This document shows, one piece after another, positions 2-287 of a stretch of DNA of 287 bases. The DNA is from Escherichia coli (GTDB taxonomy: Bacteria; Pseudomonadota; Gammaproteobacteria; Enterobacterales; Enterobacteriaceae), in the NCBI RefSeq assembly GCF_003334305.1, contig NZ_QOWS01000087.1; one strand, 5' to 3'. How positions within the stretch are numbered: the first letter of the stretch is position 1; each line of letters opens with the position of its first letter. The position numbers and the translations under genes were made by a program. Below the pieces are notes generated by a model, which worked only from the letters and a program-made list of their open reading frames with translations, did not search any database and was not told the origin of the DNA.

Positions 2-77
2 TGGTGGGTGATGACGGGATCGAACCGCCGACCCCCTCCTTGTAAGGGAGGTGCTCTCCCAGCTGAGCTAATCACCC
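2..77 (-). tRNA. valT: tRNA-Val, anticodon UAC, complete 76 nt with genomically encoded CCA
   Basis: Reverse complement of 2-77 reads GGGTGATTAGCTCAGCTGGGAGAGCACCTCCCTTACAAGGAGGGGGTCGGCGGTTCGATCCCGTCATCACCCACCA. It folds as a canonical cloverleaf: acceptor GGGTGAT/ATCACCC, D-stem GCTC/GAGC, anticodon stem CCTCC/GGAGG with loop CTTACAA, T-arm GGCGG-TTCGATC-CCGTC, discriminator A, CCA. The anticodon TAC is at window 42-44 (reverse complement). The sequence matches enterobacterial tRNA-Val(UAC) from memory. The paralog name is tentative because several identical copies exist (valT/U/X/Y/Z); valT is chosen only because the upstream gene is tRNA-Lys with a 135-nt spacer. Confidence 0.95.
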
Positions 78-98
78 AATACTACGCTGGATACTACA

Positions 99-113
99 AC
101 TAACTATGTTAGT
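99..113. other. Perfect inverted repeat giving a 6-bp stem with a 3-nt loop (actaac-tat-gttagt), abutting the orphan tRNA-Lys 3' fragment
   Basis: Positions 99-104 are the exact reverse complement of 108-113, with loop 105-107. Its last base (113) is the terminal A of the CCA copy. On the minus-strand RNA the hairpin begins exactly at the end of the tRNA-Lys 3' fragment. The stem is AT-rich, so stability is modest. Confidence 0.35.
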
Positions 114-130
114 GGTGGGTCGTGCAGGAT
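113..130 (-). repeat. Orphan 18-nt copy of the tRNA-Lys 3' terminus (minus-strand ATCCTGCACGACCCACCA), an exact direct repeat of 213-230
   Basis: Plus-strand 113-130 (tggtgggtcgtgcaggat) is identical to 213-230 over 18 nt. It corresponds to tRNA-Lys positions 59-76: the last two T-loop bases, T-stem 3' strand, acceptor 3' strand, discriminator and CCA. Identity stops sharply at both edges (131 g vs 231 t; 112 g vs 212 t). The upstream flank (131-146) retains only faint similarity to the T-arm (TCGA...ATCC with a 3-nt insertion), so this is a fragment, not a pseudogene. Confidence 0.85.
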
Positions 131-146
131 GACTCGACTTCGTCTC

Positions 147-157
147 GCCCTTCGGGC
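147..157. other. Short GC-rich hairpin, 4-bp stem with 3-nt loop (gccc-ttc-gggc), directly adjacent to the 158-173 hairpin
   Basis: Positions 147-150 (gccc) pair with 154-157 (gggc). The minus-strand RNA reads GCCC-GAA-GGGC. It is contiguous with the 158-173 stem, so the two could stack coaxially. The stem is short and the loop tight, so stability is uncertain. Confidence 0.25.
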
Positions 158-173
158 CGTTGCTGATGCAACG
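158..173. other. Perfect inverted repeat giving a 6-bp stem with a 4-nt loop (cgttgc-tgat-gcaacg)
   Basis: Positions 158-163 are the exact reverse complement of 168-173, with loop 164-167. On the transcribed minus strand the RNA reads CGUUGC-AUCA-GCAACG. No U-tract follows on the minus strand, so it is not an intrinsic terminator for the tRNA transcript. Confidence 0.4.
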
Positions 174-212
174 TTATCCTTCACGTTTTACTACCGCTTC
201 CACCTTAGCGAT

Positions 213-287
213 TGGTGGGTCGTGCAGGATTCGAACCTGCGACCAATTGATTAAAAGTCAACTGCTCTACCAACTGAGCTAACGACC
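213..287 (-). tRNA. lysT: tRNA-Lys, anticodon UUU, 75 of 76 nt in window (5' nucleotide at 288 is outside), with encoded CCA
   Basis: Reverse complement of 213-287 reads GGTCGTTAGCTCAGTTGGTAGAGCAGTTGACTTTTAATCAATTGGTCGCAGGTTCGAATCCTGCACGACCCACCA. This is a canonical cloverleaf lacking only the first G: D-stem GCTC/GAGC, anticodon stem GTTGA/TCAAT with loop CTTTTAA, T-arm GCAGG-TTCGAAT-CCTGC, acceptor 3' strand ACGACCC, discriminator A, CCA. The anticodon TTT is at window 253-255 (reverse complement). The sequence matches enterobacterial tRNA-Lys(UUU) from memory. The paralog name is tentative because there are several identical lys copies. Confidence 0.93.

Follow-up and report, generated by a model that had tools for sequence, protein, structure and literature searches.

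A short-form RtT repeat within an optional insert of the Escherichia coli lysT-valT spacer

The lysT-valT spacer and its RtT copy

The DNA analyzed here, termed the window (287 nt, E. coli contig NZ_QOWS01000087.1 of assembly GCF_003334305.1), represents the lysT-valT spacer region of E. coli; it is transcribed from the minus strand, on which all features described below are located. ARAGORN, the Rfam tRNA model, and the MG1655 annotation identified the tRNA-Lys(UUU) gene lysT (213..287; Rfam tRNA score 71.1 bits), the first base of which lies outside the window, and the tRNA-Val(UAC) gene valT (2..77). A spacer of 135 nt (212-78, ARAGORN) separates both genes within the lysT operon, which is a single transcription unit (PMC4176162). 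Neither ARAGORN nor the Rfam tRNA model called any tRNA besides lysT and valT in the window, and the RtT module described below was not called either. Other Rfam families were dismissed, as only tRNA and RtT passed and the remaining matches were far under threshold and overlapped the tRNAs. The window was matched in part by all 5426 complete E. coli genomes, and in 4267 of them at least 80% of it was matched in one place.

In the direction of transcription, the spacer starts with a linker of approximately 27 nt (187..212), the first part of an optional insert, which contains a small hairpin (AUCGCU/AGCGGU) followed by an A-rich single strand GUAGUAAAA. The linker is succeeded by a module (113..186) composed of a closing stem (P1), three internal hairpins (H1 to H3), and an unpaired tail ACCCACCA, as delineated by Rfam, our own model R1, folding, and RNAalifold. 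The module ends in an 18-nt fragment (113..130) that the earlier note had recognized as derived from the tRNA-Lys 3' end; it is indeed a 100% identical copy of the last 18 nt of tRNA-Lys (230-213), ranging from T-loop position 59 to CCA. The genuine 3' end and the fragment are copies 1 and 2 of a direct repeat, respectively. The remaining 35 nt (78..112) form the lysT trailer/valT leader; they end at the valT RNase P site (PMC4176162) and make up the whole spacer in insert-less strains (SSGw2).

The Rfam model RtT (RF00391) matched the minus strand at 281-113 with 60.2 bits (E = 1.3e-11), i.e. above the curated gathering threshold of 45; the MG1655 copy of the RtT in this spacer scored 58.8 bits. 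The Rfam alignment over 281-113 is partly an artefact that borrows the real tRNA for its 5' part: as the copy lacks the T-arm-like 5' domain of the full RtT consensus architecture, cmscan fills in the genuine T arm of tRNA-Lys together with a 44-nt insertion. Our own model R1, built from 39 short-form copies, gave 103.7 bits on 186-113. The copy is located in a tRNA operon and ends in a duplicate of the upstream tRNA 3' end (18/18 nt, tRNA-Lys). Window 186-113 (74 nt) is a truncated (short-form) member of the already catalogued RtT family, an identity overlooked in the earlier reading together with the closing stem P1 and the third internal hairpin H3. In MG1655, the lysT operon contains five RtT matches, one after each tRNA-Lys with a long spacer and one after the lysQ terminator; further copies are found at tyrT (four), where rttR and tpr are annotated, and after lysV (one). 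In the literature on RtT, rttR, and lysT spacers, nothing was found on the lysT copies as such. The window copy contains no ATG-initiated, tpr-like frame; its minus-strand frames comprise 20-26 codons and start with GTG or TTG. A coding reading (tpr-like peptide) was rejected, as the longest frame differs from the tpr frame and paralogues are 2 nt apart in H3 length.

Occupied and empty alleles differ by exactly 100 nt (212-113), representing module plus linker, located between the 18-nt direct repeats. In strain SSGw2, the spacers have lengths of 35, 51, 48, and 33 nt with linker and module gone together, so that none of the four RtT copies between tRNA genes is present; ATCC 8739 is devoid of two copies. 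Among the 5426 genomes, the unique right-hand flank was found in 5019 versus the left insert junction in 3549, indicating that about a quarter to a third of E. coli genomes do not contain the copy. Module-less strains with 33-51-nt spacers have the same seven tRNA genes. The lysT-valT RtT copy is dispensable. The earlier note had offered processing or structural elements of the precursor as the plainer explanation of the hairpins; with this copy absent from such a fraction of complete genomes, and all four absent from some strains, a need of the module for processing is weakened. A prophage remnant or an integrase att site was discarded as origin of the insert, since just 100 nt without cargo lie between the repeats, and viral contigs accounted for four loci.

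Fold and covariation of the module

The observation of three perfect hairpins, from which the earlier note had started, was confirmed: in the minus-strand reading they are formed by 173-158 (CGUUGC/AUCA/GCAACG, 6 bp), 157-147 (GCCC/GAA/GGGC, 4 bp), and 113-99 (ACUAAC/AUA/GUUAGU, 6 bp), the last of which begins on the A of the CCA copy, as had been claimed. Likewise, the spacer proved to be structured above chance, with a folding energy of -42.3 kcal/mol (z = -3.0, 2/200 shuffles as good). For region 99-173, a z value of -2.65 was obtained, and its minimum-energy fold gives all three hairpins. Among 5000 dinucleotide-shuffled sequences, 6.4% contained three or more perfect hairpins, 1.0% reached at least 16 stem bp, and 0.02% had two perfect hairpins of 6 bp or longer.

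The three hairpins had been treated as one spacer structure, which holds for the first two, both located within the RtT module, but not for 113-99, which is outside. The latter hairpin (99..113) belongs to the lysT trailer/valT leader and is retained in strains without the insert, so that its assignment to the same element was abandoned; in SSGw2, the genuine lysT CCA runs straight into window 112-78 with the hairpin directly after it. It is thermodynamically marginal (z = -0.25 for the trailer alone, and only -3.9 kcal/mol with CCA). Among orthologous Lys-to-Val spacers it was present, with differing loops, in E. coli and in loci L004, L082, and L113, a different stem was found in Serratia (L043), and it was absent from several genera (L058, L076, L101, L102, and L070). 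Hairpin 113-99 is limited to some lineages.

The module 186-113 folded at -27.7 kcal/mol (z = -3.59, 0/200 shuffles as good); its minimum-energy structure represents half of the ensemble, and the fold remained unchanged when the whole window was folded. RNAalifold on an unbiased MAFFT alignment gave the same helices P1, H1, H2, and H3. For the linker (212-186), -6.0 kcal/mol and z = -2.1 were calculated. Folding of the module with DNA parameters yielded z = -4.24. The z values by strand were -3.6 (RNA) and -4.2 (DNA) for the sense and -2.3 and -2.8 for the antisense strand, a difference that is suggestive only.

The closing stem P1 (10 bp) is formed by 185-176 (CGUGAAGGAU), which paired with 130-121 in every fold, and by the facing strand 130-121 (AUCCUGCACG) within the copy of the tRNA 3' end. 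Nine of the ten positions pair, and the A181.G125 mismatch is kept in 38/39 short-form copies. In P1, CGU equals the final 3 nt of the 5' acceptor strand of tRNA-Lys, and GAAGG differs from the 5' strand of the T stem by a single C-to-A change; the facing strand comprises the T-stem and acceptor 3' strands of the tRNA-end copy, the last 8 nt of which (ACCCACCA) stay unpaired. P1 tracks the identity of the tRNA, with GGGGAAGGAU/AUCCUUCCCC at tyrT and GUGCAGGAU/AUCCUGCAC in the long Lys copies. As P1 is built from tRNA parts, the module can be described as a tRNA top half that has been shortened and carries three hairpins in place of the T loop; it is predicted to adopt a four-way junction. According to the Rfam consensus, the H2 region would pair with the T-loop UUCG. 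This pairing was rejected because it is impossible in the short form; in long copies, its U:N pair is broken, uncompensated, in 18 of 100 cases.

For the analysis of covariation, one genome per species was searched for copies of the tRNA-Lys 3' end without the preceding T-loop G. The search returned 120 loci, almost all from Enterobacterales, with 202 copies, 165 of which have the core just upstream. The compensatory covariation that had been proposed as a check supported the internal hairpins in 137 distinct enterobacterial copies: 14 of 23 pairs change on both sides, compared with 6.2 ± 1.1 in shuffles, and slid controls fell to 26-45% paired. This wider alignment (A2, 137 copies) was fitted to the model structure and leans towards it; raw stem lists show the same compensatory pattern. 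H1 (158..173), identical to the 6-bp hairpin of the earlier note, was assigned by covariation, with 6/6 pairs changing on both sides and 96.6% of cells paired in the 137 copies, and with 3/6 pairs changing on both sides in the short-form set alone. H2 (148..156, CCC/GAA/GGG) is 99% paired and nearly invariant, one pair being changed from CG to GC in four copies, and has a GNA loop (GAA 84, GUA 21, GCA 18, GGA 8). It corresponds to the former 4-bp hairpin without its outer pair: the inner three pairs stood, but G157:C147 is not the conserved pairing, as 157:147 is an A.C mismatch in 24/137 copies and C147 covaries with G133 (CG 116, UA 14, UG 5 of 137 copies). The C147:G133 pair belongs to H3 (133..147), likewise assigned by covariation, which continues with the tandem G146.A134/A145.G135 and a GAC/GUC stem with a GAA loop. 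In H3, 3/3 stem pairs change on both sides with 97.7% paired (137 copies), 2/4 do so in the short-form set, and more than 40 different stem and loop versions were found; the conserved tandem G.A that flanks H3 is reflected by its G and A being kept in 126-134 of 137 copies. P1 is invariant in the short-form set, so that covariation is uninformative on this stem. G.U and A.C counts, evaluated as a test for selection at the RNA level, were 16 versus 8, too small a difference to be decisive. Throughout the repeat family, compensatory changes preserve the internal hairpins.

Related arrangements were observed beyond E. coli. In Photorhabdus caribbeanensis, 14 tandem units lie downstream of two intact tRNA-Lys genes, and every unit consists of a whole tRNA-Lys body with a core of approximately 64 nt between T-loop positions 58 and 59; a core at this site precedes the copy of the last 18 nt of that tRNA. 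A metagenome scan for the H2-H3 junction, from which Lys and Tyr contexts were excluded, yielded at least 120 loci from soil, sediment, and marine samples. Among the matches listed, environmental modules near a tRNA gene end 144-184 nt downstream of the tRNA, and the preceding tRNAs were Ser(GCU), Ser(GGA), Asn, Pro, Lys(CUU), and Lys(UUU); an exact copy of the last 18 nt of the neighbouring tRNA ends the module in 7 of the 10 loci checked. Other copies among the matches listed lie within terminal inverted repeats of 22-32 nt. The 115 distinct environmental copies among these matches had 59 different stems for H1 and 42 for H3, and their loops were mostly GNA triloops. The Rfam RtT threshold was reached by 4 of 20 environmental modules, and no other Rfam family covered the modules in the same 20 loci (both among the matches listed). 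A partner protein was sought by all-against-all comparison of 967 reading frames within 3.5 kb and was discarded, as no family occurred in more than six loci among the matches listed.

Fate of the spacer RNA and competing explanations

Processing of the lysT transcript has been described by Agrawal, Mohanty, and Kushner (PMC4176162). RNase P works from the 3' end towards the 5' end and acts at unusual sites in the operon, including the removal of the terminator just after CCA. RNase II and PNPase, followed by RNase T, take off the long 3' trailers of the Lys pre-tRNAs, and cleavage by RNase E within the long spacers is confined to conditions in which RNase P is inactive. In the wild type, few processing intermediates were observed, and species detected by spacer probes were described only for RNase P mutants. 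Term-seq 3' ends (Adams et al., PMC7815308) were assigned to lysT (+3/+5), valT (+2), valZ (+3), lysZ (+3/+4), and lysQ, and are listed at 780632/780634 and 780842. In the three condition lists of that study, no 3' end was found at the CCA copy at 780729, a position at which the repeated sequence complicates read mapping. As a positive control for the absence at 780729, the same tables contain an 'orphan' 3' end 4 nt past the CCA copy located between tyrT and tyrV.

The earlier note had raised the idea that the spacer acts as a stable fragment binding small RNAs. On the RNA strand (minus), no promoter and no terminator or U-tail was found in the spacer; the sole terminator-like match turned out to be H1 read on the opposite strand and was dismissed. 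No entry named lysT, valT, lysW, or lysY was found in the text-form Hfq CLASH tables, and the combination of a stable fragment with an Hfq-binding terminator and U-tail, as in 3'ETS-leuZ, is not present. As published northern blots and 3'-end mapping revealed no stable spacer product, the sponge idea is unsupported. The more general statement, that the spacer has more structure than its maturation needs, is borne out insofar as the structure is real, covaries, and has a paralogous tyrT repeat that gives an RNA (rttR); the sponge role for the lysT spacer found no support. Taken as a whole, the earlier reading is partly supported.

The lysT-valT spacer carries a short-form RtT repeat in a tRNA-linked optional insert; we consider it probable that this repeat adopts a self-contained fold and is discarded as spacer without a lasting product. 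The hairpins would then be features of the repeat family, not adaptations of the spacer to the maturation of lysT or valT. In the precursor, the module would form its own fold and be thrown away with the spacer: RNase P would cut at the 5' end of valT, 3' exonucleases would then trim the lysT trailer, RNase E would act as a back-up, and no lasting RNA product would arise. Copies may be gained and lost via recombination between the direct repeats. From the dispensability of the copy and the negative published data, we infer that it has no function of its own at this locus; the published data on stable products cover few growth conditions and represent negative evidence only. The finding that the tyrT paralogue gives a detectable RNA runs counter to the discarded-spacer view. 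Moreover, this explanation leaves the selection on the fold unexplained: the maintained hairpins still call for some selection, and since compensatory change over many genera points to selection on the fold, 'mere by-product' is perhaps too modest a description.

It appears very unlikely that the spacer yields a trans-acting RNA or sponge. Such a function would be consistent with a compact, well-defined fold with a 3' end mimicking a tRNA, with the precedent of a tRNA-spacer sponge (Lalaouna 2015, as cited in PMC7914890), and with the rtT RNA of tyrT, an annotated product that, as cited, is released from the tyrT transcript by processing and might modulate the stringent response (Bosl and Kersten 1991); the Term-seq 3' end past the tyrT-tyrV CCA copy argues in the same direction. 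Beyond the rtT RNA of tyrT, no other functional claim was traceable in the literature on the RtT family. For the lysT-valT spacer itself, however, the CCA copy lacks a 3' end in all three Term-seq condition lists, wild-type intermediates are few (PMC4176162), a terminator hairpin or U-tail for Hfq is missing from the RNA strand, the CLASH tables contain none of the four gene names, and many E. coli genomes lack the copy altogether. In addition, the insert is nearly all base-paired, and its unpaired linker differs between paralogous spacers and is not conserved. We also regard it as scarcely probable that the module is a processing signal, either by recruiting RNase P or RNase E in the manner of a tRNA-like minihelix, or as a barrier pacing 3' exonucleases. 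P1 with its ACCA tail resembles the acceptor/T-arm half of a tRNA, and the unusual RNase P sites, the RNase E cuts in long spacers with RNase P inactive (PMC4176162), and the Term-seq 3' ends 3-5 nt past the lysT CCA would fit. Yet P1 is followed by 8 unpaired nt instead of a discriminator base plus CCA, strains that have only the short spacers retain all seven tRNA genes, and the removal of trailers has been ascribed to RNase II, PNPase, and RNase T with no spacer signal required (PMC4176162).

A selfish or mobile DNA element that is active as single-stranded DNA and enters hairpin loops such as the tRNA T loop, with an incidental RNA fold, is an unlikely origin. C-GNA-G triloops and pyrimidine-GA-purine tandem mismatches, the latter with sheared tandem G.A pairs, are motifs of unusually stable DNA mini-hairpins. 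Most loops of the family are GNA triloops with a closing C:G pair, and CGAG...CGAG borders the stems, features in keeping with a single-stranded DNA reading. This reading would also account for the good fold with DNA parameters, the exact presence or absence of the insert, and the Photorhabdus core that splits whole tRNA-Lys genes at T-loop positions 58/59. The modules that follow Ser, Asn, Pro, and Lys tRNAs and carry the last 18 nt of the respective tRNA, those inside terminal inverted repeats, and the copies past the lysQ and lysV terminators, which retain the family architecture and score above the Rfam threshold, point in the same direction. On the other hand, no transposase or other protein family recurs nearby (at most 6 of the approximately 120 matches listed share a neighbour), viral contigs contributed only four loci, the tRNA 3' end is duplicated, unlike in IS200/IS605-type elements, and the layout is explained as well by an interrupted tRNA gene that underwent tandem duplication and then decayed. 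To our knowledge, no excised or circular form of the module has been reported.

A broader reading, conceivable though doubtful, takes the RtT core as one branch of a wider, poorly catalogued family that resides in hairpin loops, and the E. coli hairpins as relics of a self-propagating element that may act as single-stranded DNA, rather than as an RNA device of the operon. The core of such a family may comprise approximately 65-85 nt with three or four GNA-triloop hairpins and a CGAG...CGAG-flanked stem in many bacterial lineages. Some members would occupy the T loop of tRNA genes between positions 58 and 59 and hence stand before a copy of the last 18 nt of the respective tRNA, as observed for Tyr, Lys(UUU), Lys(CUU), Ser(GCU), Ser(GGA), Asn, and Pro, and others would lie within small inverted-repeat elements. 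For the lysT-valT spacer, little is at stake: the repeat is catalogued, has no demonstrated function, and natural strains manage without it. Its anatomy is corrected by the closing stem and the third internal hairpin with the tandem G.A, and the case for a sponge is removed. Further work is perhaps worthwhile only on how widely the core is distributed; if it represents one family, its origin and the reason for the kept fold are testable questions.

Comparison with known systems

The lysT-valT spacer shares with 3'ETS-leuZ and related sponges that it is a transcribed spacer of an enterobacterial tRNA operon. It differs in having neither a terminator, nor a U-tail, nor a conserved unpaired stretch, in the lack of reported Hfq chimeras and of a detected stable fragment, and in being operon-internal and optional.

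Like REP/BIME, REPIN, and MITE elements, the module is short, multi-copy, and strain-polymorphic with compensated hairpins, and its environmental relatives include copies within terminal inverted repeats. In contrast to these elements, a GTAG-type REP motif is missing, the search for a partner transposase yielded none, and the enterobacterial module is always linked to a tRNA, oriented with it, and terminated by a tRNA-end copy; the sole long inverted pairing in the window copy is the tRNA-derived P1. The direct repeat of a tRNA gene from T loop to 3' end resembles the repeats of T-loop-targeting integrases, but the insert consists of only 100 nt between the repeats and contains neither an integrase nor cargo.

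With tRNA acceptor/T-arm minihelices and tRNA-like RNAs (e.g. YrlA), the module has in common that P1 joins three acceptor pairs to the T stem and that the 3' end reads ...ACCA. Unlike in a minihelix, the first four acceptor pairs are missing, which leaves 8 nt unpaired, and the T loop is replaced by three hairpins.

The closest counterpart is RtT RNA itself (E. coli rttR, tyrT). The window copy has a Lys instead of a Tyr end and lacks approximately 42 nt of the 5' domain, i.e. the T-arm-like hairpin and a fourth hairpin; in addition, it has no tpr-like frame, whereas tyrT has an annotated RNA product. Both have the same H1-H2-H3 core with the CGAG...CGAG-flanked hairpin and a similar closing stem, reside in a tRNA operon, and are terminated by a duplicate of the T-loop-to-CCA portion of the upstream tRNA.

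Closing stem, consensus pairing and loop motifs of the window copy

The closing stem of the tRNA-linked repeat (RtT, Rfam RF00391) in the window, a short-form copy, contains a single mismatch, an A.G opposition at positions 181/125 of the minus strand. This mismatch is kept in 38 of 39 aligned short-form copies from many genera, and one short-form copy has a U.G wobble instead. The copy at locus L075, which was excluded from the 39-copy alignment, carries a C at the mismatch position that would pair. When the window was aligned to the Rfam RtT model, the 5' part of the alignment (window 281-187) consisted of the genuine tRNA-Lys together with a 44-nt insertion. In the Rfam consensus, the T-loop UUCG is paired with the region of the second hairpin (H2); short copies cannot form this pairing, and 18 of 100 long copies show an uncompensated change at its U:N pair. 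GNA triloops closed by a C:G pair account for the overwhelming majority of hairpin loops in the family, the window copy (157-133) included, and the third hairpin (H3) is flanked by CGAG...CGAG. Units such as GCGAAGC occur two or three times per RtT element.

RNA 3' ends and a potential alternative pairing at lysT

Published Term-seq tables place dominant 3' ends 3-5 nt after the lysT CCA (MG1655 780632/780634; PMC7815308). For the tyrT-tyrV RtT copy, the same tables contain an 'orphan' 3' end at MG1655 1287359, located 4 nt past its CCA copy and supported by 35,500 reads in one condition list (PMC7815308).

On the minus strand, the CCACC within the genuine tRNA-Lys 3' end (window 218-214) is complementary to GGUGG nine bases downstream (204-200). 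Orthologous lysT-valT spacers and lysZ-lysQ spacers share this CCACC...GGUGG pairing, with differing loops. In the precursor, the pairing would be expected to compete with the acceptor stem.

Copy number and copies beyond terminators

E. coli strains differ in how many RtT copies their lysT operon holds: MG1655 has five, ATCC 8739 has three, and SSGw2 has none between the tRNA genes. The losses in the latter two strains are all exact, with direct repeats on either side.

Long-form copies were also observed downstream of operon terminators, after lysQ (L001 1684-1809) and after lysV (L003 860-985), each followed by a second terminator copy. Although little transcription should be expected at these positions, both copies retain the family architecture and exceed the Rfam threshold.

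Environmental relatives and tandem arrays

The RtT-like modules on the metagenome contigs L138 (800-913), L190 (602-683), L191 (5149-5227), L213, L148 and L234 follow tRNA-Ser(GCU), Ser(GGA), Asn(GUU), Pro(GGG), Lys(CUU) and Lys(UUU). Their ends lie 144-184 nt downstream of these tRNAs, and the terminal 18 nt of each is an exact copy of the 3' end of its own upstream tRNA. Most modules in the 20 environmental loci scanned fall below the Rfam RtT threshold. At L168 (7923-8060), L212 (281-465) and L162 (591-768), the core (Hb, H1, H2, H3) is enclosed within small elements flanked by terminal inverted repeats of 14-32 nt (GTCATYCCGGCG..GGCCGGA / TCCGGCC..CGCCGGAATGAC); no tRNA end follows the core in these elements, and no Rfam family covers them.

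In Photorhabdus caribbeanensis (L007 5440-7870), a tandem array of 14 units, repeating every ~175 nt, lies downstream of two intact tRNA-Lys genes. In every unit, a core of ~64 nt interrupts a complete tRNA-Lys body between T-loop positions 58 and 59. Tandem tRNA-Lys/core units were also noted at L005, L006, L077 and L078. Compared with the Rfam RtT model, the L007 units score 80-89 bits each.
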